Source: an uncultured Gammaproteobacteria bacterium (lineage in GTDB: Bacteria > Patescibacteriota > Microgenomatia > Levybacterales > UBA12049). From it: a DNA stretch of 58,743 bases. The position numbers and the translations under genes were made by a program. The notes beneath the pieces were generated by a model. The model was not told where the DNA came from, searched no databases, and saw only the letters and a program-made list of their open reading frames with translations. Location: NCBI GenBank assembly GCA_964646925.1, contig CAZYIC010000001.1:1-58743 (forward strand), written 5' to 3'. Shown piece after piece: positions 5,135 to 52,074 of the stretch. Positions within the stretch are counted from its first letter, which is position 1. Each line of letters starts with the position of its first letter.

Positions 5135-5473
5135 CTGAAATTCTCCCGCCTCTGCTTTGCTTTAGACAGGCAAATCCTCCATAGACGGGGAACGTTTGAC
5201 GTTCCGGGCAGGCATTTCGGCCGATTCTTCTCTAACTAACAATGTAAGATTGTACCGAGATTGTACCGATACGGGATCGGAATAGCTTGGCGATGTGGTA
5301 CAATTTTCTATTGCTCTCCTTCTAAACCTGCCCGCAAATGCTACGCAAAGCGTTGCAGGCGGGGGCGGGCAAGCGTGAAAAAACGTCACTCTCAGCGCGG
5401 CAATTGTCAAGCTCAGCTTGACGCAAAAATTTTTTTTAAATTCCAAATTTAATCCACCTCTCGGGGATTTCAG
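5135..5473. ncRNA. Unclassified GC-rich, highly self-complementary segment: candidate structured RNA or nest of palindromic elements
   Basis: Lies in a 445-nt gap. Local G+C is about 63% (5341-5400, hand count) against about 30% in the flanks. It has a terminal helix (5135-5148 with 5462-5473) and at least 6 internal helices. There is no plausible ORF and no RNase P, tmRNA or SRP signature. Confidence 0.4.
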
Positions 5474-20371: not shown

Positions 20372-21665
20372 CTACACGCTCCATGTCTCGGGGAAAAAGA
20401 CTCGCTTCCCTAACATTACTTAAATTAAGAAGTTTCATGGTAATTCTCTCCAGACCAAACGAGAATCCCCCTTCCGGAGGCATTCCATATTTAAACGCCA
20501 TCAAATACATCTCAAAACTTTTTGGATTCATTCCGCGATCTTTGATGGATTTTACAAGATCGCTATAGTCATGTCTTCTTTGGCTTCCGCTTAAAATCTC
20601 AAGTCCCTTGAATAACAAATCGTAGCTTAAGGAATATTCCGGATTTTTTGGATCTGGCATTGTATAAAAAGGTTTCGCCAGTGTAGGAAAATGGGTGATC
20701 GTCACAAAATCGCTTGCGTACTTTTCTTTTGCCCACTTGCATATATCAACTTCGTCTTGAGGAGCTAAATCTTTCTCTCTTCTTATATCTCTGCCAAATT
20801 CTTTAAATATAATCTCCTGTGCCTCACGAAGAGTAAGCCTTGGAATTTTTCCAAATGCAACTTCGACCTTGCAATAATTTTGAACGTATTTAAGCATCTT
20901 AACAGCGGTTGATTCCAAAAGGTCAAGCAATTCATCAAATTCAACAAATCCAAATTCACAATCCATTTGCGTTGTTTCCGCAAGATGACGGGTAGTAACA
21001 GAGGGCTCTGCTCTATAGGCATGGGCAATCGTCCAGACCCGTTCGAAAACCGGCACCATCATTTGTTTGTATAATTGAGGGCTTTGTGAAAGAAGCGTCT
21101 TGTGTCCATAATAGTCAACTGCAAAAAGCTCTGATCCTCCTTCAGTTGAGCTTGCGACAATTGTTGGTACAACTATTTCGGTGCAACCTAAATTCTCAGC
21201 TGTCTTCCTGAAGCCTTCAAGTACTTTTGATTGAACTTTGAAAATCTCCGAAATTTTTGAATGGCGAAGAGTTAACGAACGATTATCCAAAAGGGTCGGA
21301 AGCTCAAGATTGAGATCTCTTCCTCCCATATCAAAAGGCAAAGTCTCTGCTTTGGATAGGACAACAATTTCCTTAGCCTCAAGCTCGACGCTGCCGGCAG
21401 GCGAATTTTTGTCAACTGCATTTTCGGGTCTTTTTTTGACTTCTCCTGTTACTGCAACCACGAACTCAGACTTTAATTCCTTCGCAGATTCATATGCGCT
21501 TTCTGAAACTTTAGCATTAACCACTATTTGAAGAAAACCGGACCTATCTCTGAGGCTTAAAAATATCAGCTTACCATGATCGCGCCGTAAATGAATCCAG
21601 CCATTTACAATTACAGATTCACCTACATGGTCAACGGTTTCTGAGATTAATGTGCGGTTTGACAT
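20328..21665 (-). CDS. aspS: Aspartyl-tRNA synthetase, archaeal/eukaryotic-type class IIb (about 440 aa)
   Basis: N-terminal OB fold (VNGWIHLRRDHGKLIFLSLRDRSG) and class II motifs (FRAE-like YRAEPS, GGFSFGLERI). Confidence 0.85.
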   Translation of the reverse strand: MSNRTLISETVDHVGESVIVNGWIHLRRDHGKLIFLSLRDRSGFLQIVVNAKVSESAYESAKELKSEFVVAVTGEVKKRPENAVDKNSPAGSVELEAKEIVVLSKAETLPFDMGGRDLNLELPTLLDNRSLTLRHSKISEIFKVQSKVLEGFRKTAENLGCTEIVVPTIVASSTEGGSELFAVDYYGHKTLLSQSPQLYKQMMVPVFERVWTIAHAYRAEPSVTTRHLAETTQMDCEFGFVEFDELLDLLESTAVKMLKYVQNYCKVEVAFGKIPRLTLREAQEIIFKEFGRDIRREKDLAPQDEVDICKWAKEKYASDFVTITHFPTLAKPFYTMPDPKNPEYSLSYDLLFKGLEILSGSQRRHDYSDLVKSIKDRGMNPKSFEMYLMAFKYGMPPEGGFSFGLERITMKLLNLSNVREASLFPRDMERVDERLSAIDKDKKNR

Positions 21666-21813: not shown

Positions 21814-22140
21814 ATGGTAGAAAGAAATTTTGACCTTGGATTTCCACAAGGACCTAATGGGATAAGATTGGTTCCCGTTAAAGGCCAGATCGGCAAAACC
21901 GAGGAAATGGACACTACGACTCCTTATGGAAGAGCACAACAACTAGTAGACGAGCTTAGATTTATGGCTGGTACGCTAGGAACAAGTGTTTCATATCAAG
22001 CTACAACTCCTATTGTTCCCGGAAATAATAACTCAAAAAAAGATAATCAAAAAATTCGCAACGGAGGTCTTAGTCCTTTTTATGAAAGACAATACCGGGG
22101 TCCTCAAAAAGCAAAACTTCATCCCTTACGAAAATTTTAA
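21814..22140 (+). CDS. Hypothetical small protein
   Basis: 108-aa ORF. No recognisable motif. The 3' end overlaps the recJ stop by 4 nt. Confidence 0.35.
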   Translation: MVERNFDLGFPQGPNGIRLVPVKGQIGKTEEMDTTTPYGRAQQLVDELRFMAGTLGTSVSYQATTPIVPGNNNSKKDNQKIRNGGLSPFYERQYRGPQKAKLHPLRKF

Positions 22141-23978
22141 AAAGATCTTAAATCCTTAATTTTCAATTGTAGTCTTTTGTTTCCATTCCCGCCTGCAAAT
22201 GCCTGAGCATTGCTCTGGCGGGCAGGCCATTCATTTTCGTCAATTGTATAAACAATATCAATCTTTTCGCCGGTTTTAATTTTAGAAAACATTTCCCCCA
22301 TCCCAAACCCAATTGCATCAAATACAGTATCGTCATTCTGAGGCACAGCCGAAGAATCTCTAGATCCTTCACTTCGTCCTGCGCCAGACGGTGCGGGACT
22401 TCGTTCAGGATGACACACTAATCGCATTTTTAGGTGCTTTCCTTCTGCGCCAACCATTCTTATCTCTTCAATCACAACGCCTTTACTTATAAATGTTGGC
22501 TCCGGATTTCCCATCCCAAAAGGAGCAAGTTTCTGCAAAGCTTCATACAAATTGACGTCAACGAAAGATAAAGGCAACTCACAATCAATCTTTAAGCTCC
22601 GGGTCAGCAAGTCTTCGTTAAGCATTAATTCCGCTTTTCTCTCCAAGGCTTTTTGAAGTTTTAGAAGTTTTATTGTCTCAACTGTAAATCCCGCTGCCAT
22701 CGGATGTCCTCCGGCATCCACCAAAAATTCTGAGGCGCTTCTGATAAATTCAATTATGTTAAATCCGCTCACAGACCTAGCCGATGCTTTGCTAAATTTT
22801 TTCCCAATTGAAACTACTATTGTAGGTCTATAGAATTCTTCAACCATTTTTCCGGCAACAAGACCGATAACCCCCTGCCCATAACTTTCATGAGAAATAA
22901 ATAGTAAATTCTTTAGCTTCTCTTTTTTCATTTTTACATAATCTTTCGCGTGCAAAACTGCCTGCATTGTTAAATCTTGTCTCTCCCTGTTCGTACTCCC
23001 TAGCAAACGGGCAAGATCTTCTGCTCTTTTTTTATTATTAGTGCAAATCAAACGCAAGCTATCCATTGCATATTCCAGTCTTCCCATTGCGTTAACACGG
23101 GGCGCAATTAGATGTCCTATTTCATAAACTCCGATTTTTTCTTTTTCCAAACCAGCTTCTTTGAAAAGCTCCAAAAGCCCTACCCGTTTTGTTTTCCTCA
23201 AAGCTTCCAAACCAAATTTTAATAATGTCCTGTTTGCGCCCTTCAAGGGAACCAAATCCGCAACCGTCGCAAGCGCTACCAACTCTAAATGTTTCTCGTT
23301 GTCATGCTGAACTTGCTCGCCTCGCTGCGAAGCGGGTTTCAGCGTCTCCTTTTTATTGAGCTGAAATGAATTCAGGATGACACAGGAGAAAAGCCAAGCG
23401 ACTCCGGTTCCGCACAACTTGGTCGTATGAACAATTGCAAGAGCCTTTGGTTTTGTTTTTGAAGGAACGTGGTGGTCGGTAATAATTACATCTATTCCCT
23501 GTCCGTTAGCAAAATCAACTGCCTTATTTGCAACAATCCCATTGTCTACGGTAATTATCAAACCGCAATTTTTAATTTTTAATTTTAAATTTTTAATTCC
23601 TGTCTCCGACAGGCCGTATCCTTCATCGATTCTATGTGGAATATACGGCATAACCTTTGCGCCAATTGAATTGAGGGTCTCCCAAAGAATCGCCGTGCCG
23701 CAAATTCCATCAACATCATAATCTCCAAAAACTACAATTTGTTCCTTGTTCTTAATTGCATTTTGAATCCTCGAAATTGCCTTATTTAATTGCTTTTTAT
23801 TAATTCCAACGCTATTAATATTTACATTTTCAATTTTTGGATGCAAAAACTCCTCAATCTCTCTTTTTGTCTTTATTCCCCGATTTTCTAGAATAATTTT
23901 TATTAGATCGTCTGTATTGAATTTTGCCTGCCCGCCGAAGCCTCGGCGAAGGAGGGAATTTTGAATTTTGAATTTCAC
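22137..23978 (-). CDS. recJ: Single-stranded-DNA-specific exonuclease RecJ carrying repeat-derived in-frame insertions
   Basis: DHH motifs (FGDYDVDGICGTA, ITDHHVP), DHHA1 (GGHPMAAG) and a C-terminal OB region. The start is uncertain. I chose GTG 23978 because the ATG at 24011 would overlap the divergent cca start. Confidence 0.9.
   Translation of the reverse strand: MKFKIQNSLLRRGFGGQAKFNTDDLIKIILENRGIKTKREIEEFLHPKIENVNINSVGINKKQLNKAISRIQNAIKNKEQIVVFGDYDVDGICGTAILWETLNSIGAKVMPYIPHRIDEGYGLSETGIKNLKLKIKNCGLIITVDNGIVANKAVDFANGQGIDVIITDHHVPSKTKPKALAIVHTTKLCGTGVAWLFSCVILNSFQLNKKETLKPASQRGEQVQHDNEKHLELVALATVADLVPLKGANRTLLKFGLEALRKTKRVGLLELFKEAGLEKEKIGVYEIGHLIAPRVNAMGRLEYAMDSLRLICTNNKKRAEDLARLLGSTNRERQDLTMQAVLHAKDYVKMKKEKLKNLLFISHESYGQGVIGLVAGKMVEEFYRPTIVVSIGKKFSKASARSVSGFNIIEFIRSASEFLVDAGGHPMAAGFTVETIKLLKLQKALERKAELMLNEDLLTRSLKIDCELPLSFVDVNLYEALQKLAPFGMGNPEPTFISKGVVIEEIRMVGAEGKHLKMRLVCHPERSPAPSGAGRSEGSRDSSAVPQNDDTVFDAIGFGMGEMFSKIKTGEKIDIVYTIDENEWPARQSNAQAFAGGNGNKRLQLKIKDLRSF
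22332..22415. repeat. Family-1 palindromic element (GTCATYCTGA...TCAGRATGAC), copy a; 84 bp, in frame inside recJ
   Basis: Terminal inverted repeats GTCATTCTGA / TCAGGATGAC. Encodes CHPERSPAPSGAGRSEGSRDSSAVPQND. About 80% identical to the reverse complement of copy d (40435-40514). Confidence 0.8.
23301..23382. repeat. Family-1 palindromic element, copy b (subtype with ATGCTGAA/TTCAGCAT hairpins), inside recJ
   Basis: GTCATGCTGAA...TTCAGGATGACA. Encodes VILNSFQLNKKETLKPASQRGEQVQHD. Related to the reverse complement of copy c, but with an extra GC-rich insert in the first hairpin loop. Confidence 0.7.
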
Positions 23979-24005
23979 ACTGTGATATACTATATCAGGA
24001 TGACA
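23926..24005. repeat. Composite repeat patch: family-2-like GC-rich unit, ATTTTGA heptamers, and a family-1 half-site
   Basis: GCCTGCCCGCCGAAGCCTCGGCGAAGGAGGG (compare 44050-44070), then ATTTTGA ATTTTGA, then TCAGGATGACA. Forms the recJ N-terminus on one strand and the cca ATG on the other. Confidence 0.55.
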
Positions 24006-25373
24006 CAACATATTCCACAACAAATTATCAACACCTACAACAAAATAAAAGAGGCTAATTTTGAAATTTATCTGGTTGGAGGGTGTGTTAGAAATCTTCT
24101 CCTCAAAAGAGATGTAAAAGACTGGGATATGACTACCAATGCAACTCCGGAACAGATTCTCAAGATTTTTAAGGATGGATTTTATGACAATAAATTCGGT
24201 ACAGTGGGCATTCCCCTCCATACTACAGTGTATGGAAGGTTGATTGTTGAGATTACAACTTTTAGAACAGAGACCGGTTACAGCGACAAAAGAAGACCCG
24301 ACAGTGTTTCCTGGGGAAAATCCATCGAGGAAGATCTTGCACGCCGCGACTTTACCATCAATTCCATCGCAATGAAACTAGACGCTCGACGCTCGACGCT
24401 AAGCACTAGCGTAATTGATCCTTACAATGGTCAGCAAGATATCAAGAATAAATTAATCCGTGCGGTTGGAAATCCGAACGAAAGATTCAAAGAAGATGCC
24501 CTAAGACTTTTAAGAGCGATAAGAATTGCAGCGGAATACCAGTTCATAATTGAAGAAAAAACATTCAAAGTTATTCAGGAAGATGCTCCATTAATTAAAA
24601 ATATTTCGGGAGAAAGAATCAAAACAGAATTATTAAGAATTTTATCAACAGATTTTACATATGACGGAATTATACTTTTAAAAAACTCCGGACTCTTGAA
24701 ACATATTCTTCCTGAACTATTGGAAGGAATCGATGTCTCCCAAGTAAGACCCGGACGACATCATACAACCGATGTTTTTACCCATAACATAATGTCATTG
24801 AAATTCTGTCCGTCAAACGATCCAATAGTAAGATTCGCAACCCTCATTCACGACATTGGCAAACCAAAAGCAATTGGCAAAGATGAAAATGGTCTTGTAA
24901 CTTTTTATAATCATGAAATAGTCGGAGCGAGAATAGCAAATGAGATTTGCGAAAGGCTGAGATTTTCCAAAAAAGAAAAAGACAGGGTTTACAACTTAAT
25001 TAGATGGCATATGTTTACTGTCGATGAAAAAGTAAGTGACGCCGGAATAAGAAGATTTATAAGACGAGTTGGAGTTGAAAATGTAAAAGATGTAATGGAT
25101 TTAAGAATTGGAGACAGGCTTGGAGGAGGAACCCAAACAGCAGAAAGCTGGAGACTTAAACTTTTCAAAAAAAGAATTGAAGAACAATTACAACCTGCCC
25201 CCTTCTCAATAAATGATTTAGCAATTGACGGAAATGACATTATTAAAGAATTAAATATTAAACCCGGACCAAAGATTGGCGAAATTCTCCAAAAACTTTT
25301 CCTCGAAGTCGACGAAGATCTCTCAAAAAACAATAAAGAATTCTTACTCAAAAGAATAAAAGAGCTTGATTAG
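24000..25373 (+). CDS. cca: CCA-adding tRNA nucleotidyltransferase with HD domain
   Basis: YLVGGCVRNLLL...DWD head domain and HD domain (LIHDIGKP). I placed the start at MTQHIPQQ (ATG 24000); the track start is a TTG extension. Confidence 0.9.
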   Translation: MTQHIPQQIINTYNKIKEANFEIYLVGGCVRNLLLKRDVKDWDMTTNATPEQILKIFKDGFYDNKFGTVGIPLHTTVYGRLIVEITTFRTETGYSDKRRPDSVSWGKSIEEDLARRDFTINSIAMKLDARRSTLSTSVIDPYNGQQDIKNKLIRAVGNPNERFKEDALRLLRAIRIAAEYQFIIEEKTFKVIQEDAPLIKNISGERIKTELLRILSTDFTYDGIILLKNSGLLKHILPELLEGIDVSQVRPGRHHTTDVFTHNIMSLKFCPSNDPIVRFATLIHDIGKPKAIGKDENGLVTFYNHEIVGARIANEICERLRFSKKEKDRVYNLIRWHMFTVDEKVSDAGIRRFIRRVGVENVKDVMDLRIGDRLGGGTQTAESWRLKLFKKRIEEQLQPAPFSINDLAIDGNDIIKELNIKPGPKIGEILQKLFLEVDEDLSKNNKEFLLKRIKELD

Positions 25374-29256: not shown

Positions 29257-29325
29257 GTCATCCTGAATTTATTTCAGGATCCCATTTTTTTGGGAACTAG
29301 ATGCTGAAATGAATTCAGCATGACA
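29257..29325. repeat. Family-1 palindromic element, copy c (two-hairpin subtype), spanning the secD 3' end and the secD-secF spacer
   Basis: GTCATCCTGAA-TTTA-TTTCAGGAT ... ATGCTGAA-ATGA-ATTCAGCATGACA. Encodes the last ~17 codons of secD (MLNSFQHLVPKKMGS) and its TGA stop. Confidence 0.75.
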
Positions 29326-30635
29326 TTTAATAAAGTTCTGGTTACAACTATTGCCGAGAACATAGAAACTAAAACTCCAATTGCCAATGTTAAGGCAAAA
29401 CCCCTAACGGAACCTGTCCCAAATTGATATAAAACGGCACATGTTATAAGACTTGAAATATTGGAATCCCTAATTGATGTCCAAGCTCTTGTAAATCCTA
29501 ACCCCAATGATTCATGCCATGATCTCCCGGATCTTCTTTCTTCTTTCATTCTTTCAAATATCAAAATATTTGCGTCAACTGCCATGCCAATTGACAGGAT
29601 AAACCCTGCTATTCCTGAAAGTGTAAGTGTTATTGCATATGGAGTAATACTACTAAGCTTAAATATCGATAACACAAACAAGGCATAAATTACCAAAGCA
29701 ATGCTTGCAACAATACCTAATCTCCCATACAATACGGTCATAAAAATAATTATTATTACAATTCCCAAACCTCCCGCAAAAAGGCTTTTGAGGAGTGAAT
29801 CCTGCCCCAAAGTCGCATCAACCCCGTGCTGTTGTAAGTAAACGAGGGGTACAGGCAATGCTCCCGCATTAAGAGATCTACTCAGAGCATTTGCTGATTC
29901 CGTAGTAAACCCTCCTGTTATAACAGCGTCCCCTGTTAGTATAGACTGATTTACAACCGGCGCCTCTATAACTTGCTCATCAAGAACGATCGCAACTTTT
30001 TTATTAACATTTCTTTTCGTTATGTCTGCGAATTTTTTCGCTCCATCATTTGTAAATTTTAATTGTACTTGCGGTTTACCGCTATTCGTATCAAAACCAA
30101 CACTTGCTTCTTTGATATCCGGTCCACCGAGATTTGTTTTGTTGGGATATGTGCCCAATGAAAGCACTATGCTCGGGGGATATGCGGATTGCGTCGCAAT
30201 AAGAGCTTTAAAATCGTCTTCTGTTGTAACTAATGCAGATGAACTTGTTGCAGTCATCTCCCAAAAAGAAAGCTGTGCGGTTGTGCCGATTATGTTTTTT
30301 GCCTGGTCAACATTAACACCCGGCAATTCAACAATAATACGATAATCGTTTCCGCTCACTGCGGTTTGGACAATTGGCTCCGATACTCCAAAATAGTTTG
30401 TTCTTCGCTCTATTATTGTTTTTACACCTGCCAATGCCATATCTCTTTGAGCCTGACTCACATTTTTCATATCGGCCTTAAGCGTTATACTTGTCCCTCC
30501 GGCCAGATCCAATCCTTCTTTAAAAGACAAGGATTTTGTAAATGAGAGTATGCCCTTTGACGGAAGATTAACTACGATCGCAGTAATTGTTAATAAAATA
30601 ATAAACCAAAGAAGCAGTCGCGGACTCTTTTTCAT
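29274..30635 (-). CDS. secD: Protein translocase subunit SecD
   Basis: 453 aa. GLDLAGG motif, large periplasmic domain and a C-terminal 6-TM bundle. Confidence 0.93.
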   Translation of the reverse strand: MKKSPRLLLWFIILLTITAIVVNLPSKGILSFTKSLSFKEGLDLAGGTSITLKADMKNVSQAQRDMALAGVKTIIERRTNYFGVSEPIVQTAVSGNDYRIIVELPGVNVDQAKNIIGTTAQLSFWEMTATSSSALVTTEDDFKALIATQSAYPPSIVLSLGTYPNKTNLGGPDIKEASVGFDTNSGKPQVQLKFTNDGAKKFADITKRNVNKKVAIVLDEQVIEAPVVNQSILTGDAVITGGFTTESANALSRSLNAGALPVPLVYLQQHGVDATLGQDSLLKSLFAGGLGIVIIIIFMTVLYGRLGIVASIALVIYALFVLSIFKLSSITPYAITLTLSGIAGFILSIGMAVDANILIFERMKEERRSGRSWHESLGLGFTRAWTSIRDSNISSLITCAVLYQFGTGSVRGFALTLAIGVLVSMFSAIVVTRTLLNVMLNSFQHLVPKKMGS

Positions 30636-38162: not shown

Positions 38163-39131
38163 TTAAATTATATTTCTCCAATAGTCCAGAGTATCCCTAA
38201 GCGTTGTCTCAATGGGAATTGTGGGTTTCCAGCCCGTTAACTTTGTAAATTTGCCGGCATCACATACCAAATCGGGATTATCTATGGGTCTTAATAAATT
38301 TTTGTCAACCCTTATTTTTATTTTTTTTGTGGAGAAAGAAATCATTTCGCTTAAAACATCGCTAATTTTATAAGAAACACCGGATCCGATATTGTAAACG
38401 TCTCCAAATTTTCCTTTCTCTATAGCCATCTCATATGCTCTGGCCATGTCTCTTACGTCGGTAAAGTCTCTTCTTGTCTCCAAATTACCAACTGATAAAA
38501 ATTGCTCCCGGCCCCTTTCTATTTCCGCGATTTTTTTAGCAATCGATGCCACAACAAAATGCGGAGACTGTCTTGGACCAATATGATTAAATGGCCTAAC
38601 TCTAACTATTTTTAGATCATAAGATAAAAAATATTGCAAAGCTAAAAAATCCTGGGCTATTTTAGAAACTGCATATGGACTAAGAGGCATAATAGGCGTA
38701 TTCTCATCTATCGGCAAATTTTCTTTTTTAACTACTCCATAGATATCCGCAGAAGAAATAATTAAAATTTTTGTATCAAATAAATTATTCATTTTTATAG
38801 CATTTAAGATATTGACCTCGGCAATTATGTTGTTCGTTAACGTTTTCTGAGGATCTTTAAAACTATTTGCTGGAGATGGTAGAGCTGCCAAGTGGAAAAT
38901 TAAATCCGGCTTTATTTTTCCAATAAGAGCATTGCATCCTTCCGGGAACATTAGGTCAATTTTAAAAAGTCTTATTTCATTCTTTATTCTTTCTATGTTA
39001 TTGAGCCCCTGATTAAATAAATATGTGCCGTATACTTCATGCAGCTTCTTGGAAACCAGATGTTCTGCAAGGTAACTTCCGGCAAATCCGGTAATTCCTG
39101 TTATGAGAACTTTTTTTGTAGGGGAATTCAT
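38163..39131 (-). CDS. rmd: GDP-4-dehydro-6-deoxy-D-mannose reductase (Rmd-like)
   Basis: ITGITGFAGSYL, SPYAVSK, VRPFNHIGPRQ and VGNLETRRDFTDVRDM closely follow the Rmd pattern as I recall it from Pseudomonas Rmd. Confidence 0.65.
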   Translation of the reverse strand: MNSPTKKVLITGITGFAGSYLAEHLVSKKLHEVYGTYLFNQGLNNIERIKNEIRLFKIDLMFPEGCNALIGKIKPDLIFHLAALPSPANSFKDPQKTLTNNIIAEVNILNAIKMNNLFDTKILIISSADIYGVVKKENLPIDENTPIMPLSPYAVSKIAQDFLALQYFLSYDLKIVRVRPFNHIGPRQSPHFVVASIAKKIAEIERGREQFLSVGNLETRRDFTDVRDMARAYEMAIEKGKFGDVYNIGSGVSYKISDVLSEMISFSTKKIKIRVDKNLLRPIDNPDLVCDAGKFTKLTGWKPTIPIETTLRDTLDYWRNII

Positions 39132-40420
39132 CGACCAACTCCAGTATATATAAATCCAATTTCTCTCAATTTATGGGGCTCGTAGATATTTCTTCCGTCA
39201 AGCAGAATTGGCTTCTTCATGGATTTTTTTATATTTGATAAATCAAGCTGTCTGAATTCATTCCATTCAGTCATCACAATTAAGATATCGCAATCTTTGG
39301 CAACTTCGTAGGAATCCTTACGAAATTCAATATTTTTCAACATCCTTTTAGCATTATTCATAGCGATAGGATCGTATGCTTTTATCCTTGCGCCTTCTCT
39401 CTGCAGCTTGTTTATGACGATAATCGAAGGCGCATCTCTCATATCGTCCGTATTTGGCTTAAAAGATAAACCAAGTATCCCGACTGTTTTCCCTCTTATT
39501 TTTCCGTCCAATAATTTTTTTGCTTTTTGGACAATACCCAATATAGCATACTTATTAATTGCTTCAACATCTTCAAGAAGAGAGAAATTGTATCCTGCAT
39601 TTTTGGCAATGGCAATCATGGCTTTTACATCTTTTGGAAAACAGCTTCCCCCATATCCTGCTCCCGCAGATAAAAATTCGCTGCCGACCCTTTTGTCAAA
39701 TCCCACTGCTTCCAAAACTTTTAATCCGTCTGCGCCTGTTAGTTCTGAAAGGTATGCGATTGCATTTGCAAAAGAAATTTTTGTAGCCAGAAAAGAATTA
39801 GCCGCATATTTAATCATCTCGGCAGTTTCAATATTTGTTAAGACATATTTTCCATCAATAGGCTCATGGAGTTCTACTAATAATTTTTCAGCAACCTTTG
39901 AATCTGTACCCATCACAATTCTATCAGGATGAAGAGTATCTGATATAGCTTGCCCTTCCCTTAAGAATTCCGGAACCGAAGCGATATCGAATGTCGCACC
40001 AGTTGGTTTTGACTTATTAATAATTTCTTTTGTTGTTTTATTCGTTCCAACGGGTACCGTACTTTTTGTAACAACAACCGTATATCCTCCCAGATTCTCT
40101 CCGATTTTCGAGGCCACTTCAAAAACGACTGACAAATCAGCTTCACCGGTCGGTTTGGGAGGAGTACCTACCGCTATAAAGACTACATCTGAATTTGGAA
40201 TGGATTCTTTATAATCCAAAGTAAATAATAATCTTTTTGCCTTTACGTTTCTTTTTACAATTTCTTCGAGTCCCGGTTCGTAAATAGGCAGTATGCCTTT
40301 TTTAAGATTCTCTATTTTTTTATATGTATGCCCGATAACCCAAACCGTATTCCCCAAATCTGCAAAAACAGAAGCGGTTACGAGTCCAACGTATCCATGT
40401 CCTACAAAAGTAATCGTCAT
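39128..40420 (-). CDS. ugd: UDP-glucose 6-dehydrogenase
   Basis: N-terminal GHGYVGL Rossmann motif and catalytic GGSCFPKD. Confidence 0.93.
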   Translation of the reverse strand: MTITFVGHGYVGLVTASVFADLGNTVWVIGHTYKKIENLKKGILPIYEPGLEEIVKRNVKAKRLLFTLDYKESIPNSDVVFIAVGTPPKPTGEADLSVVFEVASKIGENLGGYTVVVTKSTVPVGTNKTTKEIINKSKPTGATFDIASVPEFLREGQAISDTLHPDRIVMGTDSKVAEKLLVELHEPIDGKYVLTNIETAEMIKYAANSFLATKISFANAIAYLSELTGADGLKVLEAVGFDKRVGSEFLSAGAGYGGSCFPKDVKAMIAIAKNAGYNFSLLEDVEAINKYAILGIVQKAKKLLDGKIRGKTVGILGLSFKPNTDDMRDAPSIIVINKLQREGARIKAYDPIAMNNAKRMLKNIEFRKDSYEVAKDCDILIVMTEWNEFRQLDLSNIKKSMKKPILLDGRNIYEPHKLREIGFIYTGVGR

Positions 40421-40434
40421 AAATTATTTCCAAT

Positions 40435-40514
40435 GTCATTCTGAACGAAGGGACGCACCGTCTGGTGCATCCCGAAGTGAAGAATCCAGATCCTTCGTTT
40501 CACTCAGGATGACA
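40435..40514. repeat. Family-1 palindromic element, copy d; 80 bp between ugd and rfbD, supplying the rfbD stop codon
   Basis: GTCATTCTGAACGAAG-[GGACGCACC GTCT GGTGCATCC]-CGAAGTGAAG...CTCAGGATGACA. The rfbD ORF ends LSS-TGA inside the terminal repeat. Confidence 0.8.
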
Positions 40515-41367
40515 ACTGGGACTTAATCTTTCTTAATCCTTCTTCGAACGTCCTCATCTTAACACCCAATCTAGCTATTTTATCATTTTTCAATGCTAAT
40601 TGAAAAGGCCTAGGCGCGCGGTCATTGAAAAAAATTGATCTGGTAGTTTTATTGATTTTGGACTTGTCTAAATGAAATTCATCTGCTATTAAATTCGCAG
40701 CATCAAAAGGCGTTGAGCTTTGGCTTCCCACACAATGAAATATGCCTTGCAAATTATTTTTAATTAAGACATTAATTGCAAGGGCAATATCGTCAATAAA
40801 GGTTGGCGTAAAAATATGATCAGAAACCGCAGCAACAGGATACCCTTTTTGCAATTGCTGGAGAATCGCACGGACAAAATCCGGCCGTCCAAACACCGCT
40901 CTATAAGGAGAGGCAATTCTGACAATTATCCAAGGAGTTCTTAATCCCCGGACAATTTTCTCCCCTTCATATTTTGTTTTCGCATACCAATTGATCGGAT
41001 TTTGAATGTCTTCCTCAGCATATCCGCCGGCTGGCGGATTTTCTCCGTCAAAAACAAAATCCGTAGAAATATAGATTAATTTTTTGTTTGTCTGCCCACA
41101 TGCTTCAGCAACATTTCTTGCCCCTTCTACATTAACTTTCCAGGCTTCCCCCTCAACTCCCAAAGGTTTATCTTTTTCGCATCCGTCAACATCTGTTTTT
41201 GCCGCTAAATGAAGAATAATTGAGGCGTCAGAGGATTTAATTTTTTCAGAAATTTTATTGCGATCCGTTATGTCAACATCTGAAGATTCAAACTCGTATT
41301 TATCTTTAAGAAGTTCAACAATCCTTGACCCGACTAATCCATTTAGCCCCGTCCCCAAAACCTTCAT
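40504..41367 (-). CDS. rfbD: dTDP-4-dehydro-6-deoxyhexose reductase (RfbD-like)
   Basis: 287 aa. The GxxGxxG variant GTGLNGLVGSR and the overall RmlD length and pattern. Confidence 0.75.
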   Translation of the reverse strand: MKVLGTGLNGLVGSRIVELLKDKYEFESSDVDITDRNKISEKIKSSDASIILHLAAKTDVDGCEKDKPLGVEGEAWKVNVEGARNVAEACGQTNKKLIYISTDFVFDGENPPAGGYAEEDIQNPINWYAKTKYEGEKIVRGLRTPWIIVRIASPYRAVFGRPDFVRAILQQLQKGYPVAAVSDHIFTPTFIDDIALAINVLIKNNLQGIFHCVGSQSSTPFDAANLIADEFHLDKSKINKTTRSIFFNDRAPRPFQLALKNDKIARLGVKMRTFEEGLRKIKSQLSS

Positions 41368-51308: not shown

Positions 51309-51402
51309 AAAGTAACTATAATAACTCTCTCACTACGTTCACTACGTTTGCAAATATTCTCAACCTTCCAGGTTACGTAGATTCGCTATCTACTATTATT
51401 GC

Positions 51403-52074
51403 CTAATCATCTAGGGTCAAATGCTTAATCTTTTCCAATTCTTTTCCGTAGCCAATCTGATCGAAAACAAACCTTTTGTATTCTTGAGGATTTTTGAAGT
51501 GACTAAGTACGGGTTCCATTTCTATTTGCGATGAATTTCCAATAATATAGTCAGGAAGAGACGACCAAGGATAGGAAAAAAGATCATCTTCCCTTACCAC
51601 ATTAGAAACTACCGGATTAAGATGAATATAACGAGAAAGATGCAATAGTTGCTCATCAGTTTCAACGTGGACAGACTTAAAAACCCCTTGGAACAAAGGG
51701 CCAACTCTTTCATTTAAAGTATTAAAATACCTAGTATAGCTGTTTGTAAATTGACTTGTAAATTTAGATATACCGTTGTCTTGATTTTGTTTAAGAAGAA
51801 AGTGAAAATGATTAGGCATTAAAACAAAAGCCACAATATCAACAAGTTTCTCAGTTTTCTGCAGTGAGCCCAAAAGTTGTTGGCGTTCTTCCTGAGAAAA
51901 CTCTTTAAACCTTGCAAGCGAAACGGGAGGATGTGCATGTCTATAATAAGAGAATGTAAGCATTGCTTGTTTGTGCTCGGCTCTCGAAATAAAAGTGGGA
52001 GCTCTCGCGACACCTCGATTAAATATATGATAAAACTCGCCATTAACCAATGGTGTGCGACGAACAAAAGACAT
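51403..52074 (-). CDS. IS200-like Y1 (HUH) tyrosine transposase of the REP-associated (RAYT/TnpA-REP) type
   Basis: 223 aa. YHIFNRG, HUH motif MPNHFHFLL, and catalytic Tyr region SRYIHLNPV. Confidence 0.8.
   Translation of the reverse strand: MSFVRRTPLVNGEFYHIFNRGVARAPTFISRAEHKQAMLTFSYYRHAHPPVSLARFKEFSQEERQQLLGSLQKTEKLVDIVAFVLMPNHFHFLLKQNQDNGISKFTSQFTNSYTRYFNTLNERVGPLFQGVFKSVHVETDEQLLHLSRYIHLNPVVSNVVREDDLFSYPWSSLPDYIIGNSSQIEMEPVLSHFKNPQEYKRFVFDQIGYGKELEKIKHLTLDD

Follow-up and report, generated by a model that had tools for sequence, protein, structure and literature searches.

What keeps the stems of a small dispersed hairpin element paired from copy to copy, and what kind of enzyme would recognize it? 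The question is raised by a stretch of 58,743 nucleotides (contig CAZYIC010000001.1, hereafter the window) from a Microgenomatia bacterium of the order Levybacterales, whose genome (0.91 Mb, 57 contigs, 37% G+C) is labelled G000 here. The first-pass annotation of this stretch compared two copies, d and a, of a repeat that we call family 1; it described a hairpin in which three base pairs are exchanged between the copies, proposed an architecture like that of REPINs, which consist of two inverted repetitive extragenic palindromic (REP) units, and pointed to a RAYT transposase gene in the window. Our analysis indicates that the 79-bp element at copy d is probably a composite of two repeats, each from a family tied to its own GIY-YIG genes, with the stems of both kept by recognition of folded single-stranded DNA (ssDNA). 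Both copies and their parts are given below.

40435 to 40513, plus strand: copy d, a family-1 head-to-head dimer of two TGTC-tagged REP hairpin units
40435 to 40486, plus strand: left arm of copy d, a T-type unit, GTC-ATTCT-GA-(mini-hairpin AC GAA GT, interrupted)-GA-AGAAT-C
40446 to 40450, plus strand: left direct repeat CGAAG, 5 bp, read as a target-site duplication
40451 to 40472, plus strand: nested 22-bp hairpin module of the GGA/TCC type, GGA-C-GCACC-GTCT-GGTGC-A-TCC
40473 to 40477, plus strand: right direct repeat CGAAG, 5 bp
40489 to 40513, minus strand: right arm of copy d, a C-type unit, GTCATCCTGA-GTGAAAC-GAAGGATC
22332 to 22414, minus strand: copy a, a family-1 dimer lying in frame within recJ (open reading frame 22137-24221, minus strand)
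22372 to 22376, minus strand: direct repeat CGAAG beside the module of copy a, first copy, extended here to 7 nt (ACGAAGT)
22377 to 22398, minus strand: nested 22-bp module of copy a, of the TCC/GGA type, TCC-C-GCACC-GTCT-GGCGC-A-GGA
22399 to 22403, minus strand: direct repeat CGAAG beside the module of copy a, second copy

On the plus strand, copy d reads GTCATTCTGAACGAAG-GGA-C-GCACC-GTCT-GGTGC-A-TCC-CGAAGTGAAGAATC-CA-GATCCTTCGTTTCACTCAGGATGAC, and on the minus strand copy a reads GTCATCCTGAACGAAG-TCC-C-GCACC-GTCT-GGCGC-A-GGA-CGAAGTGAAGGATC-TAGA-GATTCTTCGGCTGTGCCTCAGAATGAC; a repeat finder reports a 57-nt inverted match (82%) between them. The sequences are as the annotation stated, with a shared inner hairpin and three outer pairs exchanged, GGA/TCC in one copy and TCC/GGA in the other. 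The annotation was also right that the exchange is not an inversion, the loop GTCT and the orientation of the inner stem being unchanged; inversion is ruled out as the source of the swap, since GGA...TCC reverse-complements to GGA...TCC. Compensatory changes in REPIN hairpins were described already in 2011, which makes the swap on its own ordinary. At the fourth stem position, both copies carry a C.A mismatch (a T.G wobble on the complementary strand), and copy a has an additional A.C mismatch (GCACC against GGCGC). Since these mismatches turn into G.T wobbles on the opposite strand, each nested hairpin is fully paired on one strand only, namely the minus strand in copy d (one G.T wobble) and the plus strand in copy a (two). 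Folding of copy a is predicted at -15.8 kcal/mol as DNA and -40.1 as RNA for the plus strand and at -13.9 and -34.0 for the minus strand, and the nested hairpin is present in all predicted folds. Copies b and c of the annotation lack the nested hairpin, and among family-1 arms in G000 only those of copies a and d hold one.

The hairpin that the annotation had placed at the centre of the element is not central. It lies in one arm as a foreign 22-bp insert with a 5-bp target duplication. Copy d corresponds to the family-1 dimer at C6:21127-21178 (contig C6 of G000) plus 27 nt, that is, the 22-nt hairpin and the second CGAAG; with the 22 nt and one CGAAG removed, the two dimers are the same except for one base of the 4-nt spacer (CAGA here, TAGA there). 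This comparison of filled and empty sites is paralogous only, as the orthologous sites found lack the whole dimer and not just the module. Over a flank set composed of copies found with a CGAAG-flanked pattern and 40 further copies found with a core-only pattern, the module occupies at least six host hairpin families in both orientations, and two different positions in family-1 units. The hosts are as follows.

Family-1 units
The GTCATTGCGAG...CGAAGCAATC family
CCCTGAG-CGAAG-YCGAAGGG elements
GTTCGAG-CGAAG-TCGAGAAC elements
Simple GC hairpins
The loop of another module copy (once)

The 5-mers abutting the module match at four or more of their five positions in 65 of 82 non-identical copies, a sample partly ascertained through CGAAG flanks, while the next 5-mers outward, taken as a control, do so in 7 of the 82. 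With the core-only search in 11 genomes, about three quarters of the copies had such direct repeats, by a rough tally from the flank listings. At least eleven repeat sequences were found, depending on the host (CGAAG, CGTAG, CGGAG, CAAGG, CGAGG, CAGAG, CTTTG, CTCCG, CACCG and others), with CNNNG as their common form. Repeats of fixed length that vary with the host sequence point to target-site duplication, and the simplest reading of these sequences would be a 22-bp palindromic insert that generates a 5-bp duplication of its target. The variation of the repeat with the host (CGTAG, CAAGG, CACCG) rules out another candidate, in which, as with IS200/IS605 elements, a hairpin carrying its own CGAAG inserts on the 3' side of a CGAAG target. 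In four copies of the genome G012, the module is flipped between its repeats, and the same stem can carry its loop in either orientation (GTCT/AGAC, GTAT/ATAC and AGAT/ATCT), the mark of minute hairpin-mediated inversions.

Hairpin tips in G000 hold other short palindromes as well, set between direct repeats of the mini-hairpin sequence (TTCTGCAATGCAGAA, TCAAGTCAGACTTGA and TCCCGCTGAGCGGGA), at the positions listed here, so the nesting process is not confined to the 22-bp module.

C10:18391-18435: nested palindrome
C16:13206-13250: nested palindrome
C6:10671-10695: nested palindrome
C16:9539-9563: nested palindrome

Is the pairing of the module maintained? The search pattern fixed the CGAAG flanks and seven inner-stem bases and left the four outer positions on each side free. 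It gave 70 matches in 20 of the 245 genomes of the order and none for reversed controls, and recovered the outer triplets CCC/GGG, GGA/TCC, CCA/TGG, TCC/GGA and CCG/CGG. In 60 aligned copies from 20 Levybacteria genomes (35 distinct sequences), 89% of the cells of the nested hairpin are paired, compared with 27-38% in slid controls, and none of 500 shuffles reached this value, although related sequences can beat every shuffle. Of the 35 distinct sequences, 33, 33, 35 and 34 keep the free pairs 6-27, 7-26, 8-25 and 11-22, respectively, and 2-4 pair types occur at each of them. Two versions of the inner stem alternate, GCACC/GGTGC and GTACC/GGTAC, with G.T intermediates, and the fourth stem position is unpaired in 24 of the 35 sequences, 23 of them with C.A. 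The annotation had proposed that the hairpin is maintained by compensatory change and that random substitutions in a larger set of copies would speak against it; in the larger set, compensatory pairing is favoured, with 33-35 of 35 sequences paired at the free positions and 0 of 500 shuffles equal to the observed alignment. Mismatches outside the conserved C.A position (5 of the A.C type, 2 of the G.T type) are uninformative on strand asymmetry.

Pairing of this kind could arise with no selection on folding if each sublineage had a palindromic founder, or if arms were copied onto each other by cruciform repair, and the copies were too young to have decayed. The limit of 2-4 pair types per position and the many identical copies would fit, as would the loops in both orientations, which show that hairpin-mediated minute inversions act here, and the caveat on shuffled controls given above applies. 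We nevertheless consider this explanation very unlikely. The same stem is present across many genera and in copies linked to genes (described below), where further pair types occur (AGATG/CGTCT, GAATG/CGTTC and GTACT/AGTAC), and G.T intermediates are found. Moreover, repair that perfects palindromes would erase the C.A / T.G position, yet this is kept in 23 of 35 distinct sequences and in 24 of 24 gene-linked copies, even though the search pattern allowed other bases there.

The GGA/TCC and TCC/GGA types each occur in several genera and with several loops. They are therefore two old sublineages of the module and not a swap within this genome; the annotation's picture of a change from one to the other as an event between copies d and a is not borne out. 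Copy a differs from the common CCC/GGG type in the outermost pair only (C-G to T-A), by which its direct repeat becomes 7 nt long. Elsewhere in the phylum, we found one clear case of the CGAAG-flanked module among 400 genomes sampled, against 20 of 245 in this order. A wide scan with CGYACCGTCTGGTRCA, for which about 1,100 chance matches are expected by estimate, gave matches that are, as listed, mostly chance hits in large GC-rich genomes; outer triplets are paired in 9 of 81 among the matches listed, and the scan gives no usable taxonomic breadth.

The host of the module has a different design. A family-1 unit reads (T/C)GTC-ATYCT-GA-(mini-hairpin)-GA-AGRAT-C, and the commonest mini-hairpins are GCGAAGC, ACGAAGT, GTGAAAC and GGCGTAGCC. 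It folds into a 5-bp stem, ATYCT/AGRAT, followed by a tandem G.A internal loop and a variable mini-hairpin of 2-3 bp, usually with a GNA triloop; GTC stands on the 5' side of the palindrome, and C directly 3' of it. GTC and the 3' C were built into the search pattern, so that the 48 aligned units have them by construction, while a separate inspection of G000 shows T or C in front of GTCAT at most copies. About 40 units were found in G000 and none with a reversed control pattern. They form 18 dimers and a few singletons, and all 18 dimers combine one T-type with one C-type unit in the same head-to-head build, so that the dimer is the unit that propagates. To this extent the REPIN-like architecture of two inverted REP units, as annotated, is confirmed.

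The pairing that is kept in this family lies within arms. In 48 distinct 25-nt units from nine genomes, 98.8% of the cells of the intra-unit hairpin are paired, as high a value being reached in 0 of 500 shuffles. At Y6-R22, 25 units have T-A and 23 have C-G, and none is unpaired; the first mini-stem pair is GC in 27, AU in 18 and GU in 3, and the second is CG in 28, UA in 12, UG in 3, GC in 1 and something else in 4. Six non-Watson-Crick cells on the tagged strand are G.T and one is A.C, which is suggestive at most. At the Y/R position the long hairpin between arms always has T.G or C.A, whereas the pair within the arm is always Watson-Crick. Similarly, the partner mini-hairpins ACGAAGT and GTGAAAC are four transitions apart, such that each keeps its own mini-stem and inter-arm pairing is broken. 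The conserved feature of family-1 dimers is each arm's own fold, not the pairing between arms.

Could a RAYT have copied these dimers? The gene that the annotation named is real, and its connection to the elements did not hold up, since unrelated hairpins of its own flank it.

51403 to 52074, minus strand: RAYT-type Y1 (HUH) transposase gene (Pfam Y1_Tnp, 9e-8; HFHFLL and YIHLNP motifs)

Hairpins of the sequence AACCTGGARGGTT, at 51362 and 52128, bracket this gene. G000 has seven Y1_Tnp paralogues with 42-51% identity, in the window and on contigs C8, C9, C10, C22, C30 and C44, and each has its own short hairpin (e.g. AACCTGGARGGTT, CCACCTCTAAGGTGG, CACCCTTGGGGTG and CACCTGGARGGTG) with 4-40 matches genome-wide, one mismatch being allowed and both strands counted. 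The seven genes thus look like several private RAYT-REP pairs in a 0.9-Mb genome. The sequence GATCCCGTATCGG, which brackets the Y1 gene on C22, has further copies at window position 5266, in a GC-rich stretch (5135-5473), and at some nine other sites, so a REP of the C22 paralogue is part of this GC-rich pile-up.

Under a REPIN model, the dimers would be non-autonomous elements copied in trans by a Y1 (HUH) RAYT that recognizes folded ssDNA. The seven Y1 genes, the dimer build and the compensatory changes, which are classic REPIN features (PMC3116915), are in keeping with it. Among 41 relatives, Y1 genes also correlate with family 1 (both in 16, the repeat only in 3, Y1 only in 10 and neither in 12; odds ratio 6.4, p=0.02), and across the order they correlate with the module, being present in 18 of 20 genomes that have it and in 114 of the 225 others (p=7e-4), but these correlations may merely mark repeat-rich genomes. 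Neither family-1 units nor the module flank any of 17 Y1 genes (7 in G000 and 10 in G008, G012 and G015), and the closest family-1 unit to any of the seven in G000 is about 2 kb away. PF01797 has no match in G009, a 100% complete genome with 34 family-1 units, or in G016, with 36. The GT[AG]G tetranucleotide at the 5' end of REPs was not found in family 1, whose tag is (T/C)GTC, and REPs tagged with CGTC or TGTC have no dedicated RAYT according to Di Nocera 2013 (PMC3733652). Compared with REPINs and RAYTs as described by Bertels & Rainey (2011, PLoS Genet 7:e1002132, PMC3116915), family 1 is alike in that two inverted REPs propagate as a unit, hairpins are maintained by compensatory changes and dozens of copies are present per genome. 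It is unlike them in that the defining flanking of a RAYT gene by REPs fails, the conserved pairing lies within arms while the long hairpin always contains T.G or C.A, and G000 has multiple Y1 paralogues where RAYTs are usually single-copy. RAYT mobilization of these dimers is, on this evidence, improbable.

Family 1 adjoins a gene of another kind. On contig C6, positions 20811-21116 encode a 110-residue GIY-YIG protein (Pfam 8.7e-17 over residues 4-76, with a weaker T5orf172 match in the same stretch); a family-1 dimer lies 11 nt upstream of its ATG, and a family-1 unit overlaps the 3' end of the gene. The gene terminates within that unit, as the RmlD-like gene beside copy d does in its own element. 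In a survey of the 41 relatives, seven orthologues of at least 60% identity were found (two in G034 and one each in G026, G022, G008, G025 and G005). All seven have a family-1 unit on the 3' side, in antisense, and six also have one on the 5' side, in sense; in place of the 5' unit, the G022 orthologue (L280) has a whole dimer just downstream. A degraded copy in G009 (L302, 49%) has family-1 units on both sides. Paralogues of 40-60% identity are flanked likewise by other TGTCAT-tagged families, GTCATTGCGAG..., GTCATGCTGAA..., CGTCATTCTGGC... and GTCATCCTCGCGAAAGCGAGGATC, the paralogues in G001, G006 and G024 by the GTCATGCTGAA type. Adjacency, not co-occurrence, is the strong evidence for the link between family 1 and these genes. 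NCBIfam gave no family above cut-off for the C6 protein or for the second-family GIY-YIG proteins described below.

This arrangement resembles that of SsnA, a 94-residue single-domain GIY-YIG ssDNA nuclease whose gene is flanked by NTS/SRM hairpins (Chenal et al. 2025, Nat Commun 16:2388, PMC11893778). SsnA binds its hairpin as ssDNA only, on one strand, cuts a few bases upstream and does not bind RNA; the GTC before the palindrome is critical for cutting and the C after it for binding (PMC11893778). The layouts correspond: the NTS reads CGTC-ATTCCCGCG-MAV-CGCGGGAAT-C, and family 1 TGTC-ATYCTGAGC-GAA-GCGAAGRAT-C, both with a (C/T)GTC tag and a palindrome that starts and ends with AT and is followed by C. 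In both systems, repeats stand on the two sides of a GIY-YIG gene of about 100 residues, sense 5' and antisense 3', and different paralogues have different repeat variants. A G012 paralogue (51% identity) is flanked by GTCATTCCCGCGAAAGCGGGAATCCAG, the Neisseria NTS consensus save for its first base (T for C), and both this sequence and the consensus fit the published SRM pattern. The family-1 stem differs: it is rich in AT, combines a variable mini-hairpin with a tandem G.A loop, and lies outside the degenerate SRM sequence. Further differences are that the host is a Candidate Phyla Radiation (CPR) bacterium, that its nuclease is putative, and that the second GIY-YIG family has a hairpin on the 5' side only.

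The repeat type itself has been surveyed before, as CGTC/TGTC-tagged REPs, which include Neisseria dRS3 and Rickettsia RPE-4/6 (Di Nocera, De Gregorio & Rocco 2013, BMC Genomics 14:522, PMC3733652). Family 1 shares with them the TGTC tag, stems that start with AT, a mostly head-to-head dimeric form (with the tags outside in family 1), the lack of flanked RAYT genes and some in-frame copies within replication and repair genes, here recJ. The stems described in that survey are continuous over 8-9 bp with a loop of 4-5 nt, whereas family 1 has a 5-bp stem, a G.A/G.A internal loop, a mini-stem of 2-3 bp and mostly a 3-nt loop; the survey included no CPR hosts. The host element is a new family of an already known repeat type. 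A literature search by sequence words (GTCATCCTGA and similar) returned primers only.

The nested module has a gene association of its own. Two other small GIY-YIG genes of G000 have a standalone hairpin of the module's type upstream of their ATG, at distances of 8 and 15 nt, respectively.

C10:550-813: second-family GIY-YIG gene, 88 residues, identified by Pfam (1e-17)
C2:31066-31323: second-family GIY-YIG gene, 86 residues, identified by Pfam (2e-15)

The two proteins share 70% identity, whereas the second family and the first have 33% identity over 69 residues and fall on different branches. In the leader, the sense strand carries the hairpin in T.G-wobble form, GGATGYRCC-loop-GGTRCGTCC, and across the order 24 of the 30 closest orthologues have it upstream of their ATG, at a distance of 3-55 nt. 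Here too the stems are compensated (GGATG/CGTCC, AGATG/CGTCT, GAATG/CGTTC and GTACT/AGTAC), and the loops are sometimes enlarged by further small hairpins. Gene-linked hairpins stand on the 5' side only. They have no direct repeats at their flanks, and the dispersed copies would accordingly be solo derivatives of the cassette hairpin. At C2:31066-31560, a tRNA gene (Rfam 72 bits, locus L247) whose anticodon was read by eye as CAT precedes the GIY-YIG gene with its leader hairpin by about 90 nt, and tRNA genes or tRNA-like stubs are present near several orthologues. In the literature searched, we found no description of the nested module with host-dependent duplications or of its link to a second GIY-YIG family, and we regard both as new.

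The RAYT/REPIN assignment is accordingly not supported and is replaced here by an Ssn-like GIY-YIG assignment. Beside the observed anatomy, pairing statistics, target duplications, gene adjacency and insertion polymorphism, we propose the following course of events. The host would be a head-to-head TGTC-tagged REP dimer in the NTS/SRM hairpin layout that Ssn nucleases bind as ssDNA. One of its arms would later have been struck by a 22-bp palindromic module, with duplication of the 5-bp target CGAAG, and this module would be a solo copy of the hairpin found just upstream of the second GIY-YIG gene family. The stems would stay paired through recognition of the folded single strand, most likely as ssDNA, with only those copies that fold being bound and propagated. 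Strand-specific recognition of a folded strand, which we infer from Ssn biochemistry, would explain how stems covary while the bases of the tag stay fixed. By analogy, the GIY-YIG proteins may bind or cut the hairpins of family 1 and of the module; that they, or another named enzyme, carry out the insertion is speculative.

Several observations weigh against this reading. GIY-YIG nucleases are not, to our knowledge, known to make 5-bp target duplications, we know of no demonstration that Ssn moves its repeats, and no transposition function of the second GIY-YIG family is known to us. Family 1 fails the SRM sequence HGTCWYN(0-2)YYVSBRHN(0-5)WNVSBRGN(0-2)RNCYNB, which has 0 matches in G000, so that we call family 1 SRM-like and not a member by that definition. 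Counting genomes among the 41 relatives with at least three family-1 units and an Ssn-type match at E<=1e-12, the repeat and the gene occur together in 12, the repeat only in 7, the gene only in 8 and neither in 14. This gives an odds ratio of about 3, which does not exceed that of the Y1 genes, and the 7 of 19 repeat-bearing relatives without an Ssn-type match at this threshold include G016, with its 36 units. A close homologue of the second family is present in only 15 of the 20 module-bearing genomes. The few pair types per position in the module imply few independent compensatory events, and part of the covariation would then be shared descent from palindromic founders. Lastly, many CGAAG-flanked copies, such as the 13 in G184, are probably an amplified composite element and not independent insertions.

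Alternatively, folding might be selected at the level of RNA, with the hairpins acting after transcription as terminators, mRNA stabilizers or protein-binding sites. The predicted RNA folds lie well below those of shuffled controls (z -3.1 to -5.7) and contain the nested hairpin in every case. One of the two strands has a G.U-type wobble in place of the conserved mismatch, and where the hairpin is linked to a GIY-YIG gene, it lies in sense orientation within the 5' leader. In addition, transcription often extends to REPs located downstream of genes (PMC3733652). Nevertheless, a structured RNA is an unlikely explanation. Rfam matched only tRNAs, in the window at gathering thresholds and in four GIY-YIG loci at E<=0.1, and no match to the elements was found; copies occur in both orientations relative to genes, within coding sequence (recJ) and nested in other repeats; the target-site duplications and the presence or absence of copies between species are DNA-level events; and the characterized Ssn binds no RNA.

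DNA-level mobility of the composite's host is visible in comparisons among relatives. G004, of the same genus, has nothing inserted at the site of copy d, and the stretch of recJ that spans 32 codons in G000 is only about 8 codons long there, so that copy a is missing. Other REP-type elements occupy the copy d site in G005 and G002, and in G113 and G114 the entire dimer is absent at a site that is occupied in G008. No target duplications of whole dimers were definable, as filled and empty orthologous sites are too diverged. Copy d itself lies between a UDP-glucose dehydrogenase-like gene (39128-40420, minus strand) and an RmlD-like gene (40504-41367, minus strand). The RmlD-like gene takes its stop codon from the end of copy d, TCA at 40504-40506 being TGA on the minus strand, and the terminal TCAGGATGAC (40504-40513), read on the minus strand as ...GTC ATC CTG A, encodes the C-terminal V-I-L of the protein. 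The same-genus loci compared for this spacer were L062 (G005), L063 (G002), L064 (G003), L065 (G001) and L066 (G004). The insert differs in nearly every species of the genus, being a family-1 dimer, a family-2 unit with a nested GC hairpin, a ATCATGCTGAA-type unit, an AT-rich repeat or nothing; the spacer is a hot spot for independent insertions. The recJ frame that holds copy a also reads through a family-2 element, GTCATCCTGAATTCATTTCAGC...GTTCAGCATGAC, at about 23290-23380, which encodes ...VILNSFQLNKKETLKPASQRGEQVQHDNEKH..., and its unusual N-terminal 110 residues include the GTCATCCTGA motif. A further family-2 element in the window (29257-29330), TGTCATCCTGAATTTATTTCAGGATC...GATGCTGAAATGAATTCAGCATGACA, joins a ATCCTGAA-type arm to a ATGCTGAA-type arm.

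For the module, a bolder reading is conceivable, and we hold it only tentatively and think it more doubtful than not. The 22-bp hairpin would be among the smallest transposable units, a solo leader hairpin moved in trans by its GIY-YIG nuclease or an Ssn-like partner, via ssDNA, into C-NNN-G sites located at the tips of other hairpins or close by, with a 5-bp duplication. Very small nested repeats have a reported parallel in SDR1-8 of Nostocaceae, 21-27 nt repeats that Elhai et al. are said to have described (2008, Genome Res 18:1484) as resembling mobile DNA and nested in other repeats; they are alike in small size and nesting, and differ in lineage and sequence. If the hairpin is indeed mobilized in trans, single-domain GIY-YIG nucleases would have a transposase-like role, and the multiplication of NTS-, SRM- and CGTC-type repeats, which the Ssn paper left open, would be accounted for.

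If recognition of folded ssDNA by GIY-YIG proteins holds as the explanation, a very common class of CPR repeats would leave the RAYT/REPIN framework for that of the Ssn GIY-YIG nucleases, described only in 2025 and mostly from Proteobacteria. Nuclease and hairpin are also seen to co-diversify paralogue by paralogue within one small order. The nested module, with its host-dependent 5-bp duplications, would then be direct sequence evidence of hairpins inserting as discrete units. The spread of REP, NTS and SRM repeats would become testable with a 22-nt substrate, a CNNNG target and two candidate enzymes of less than 110 residues, for which the natural compensated variants GGA/TCC, TCC/GGA, CCC/GGG and CCA/TGG are ready-made stem mutants.

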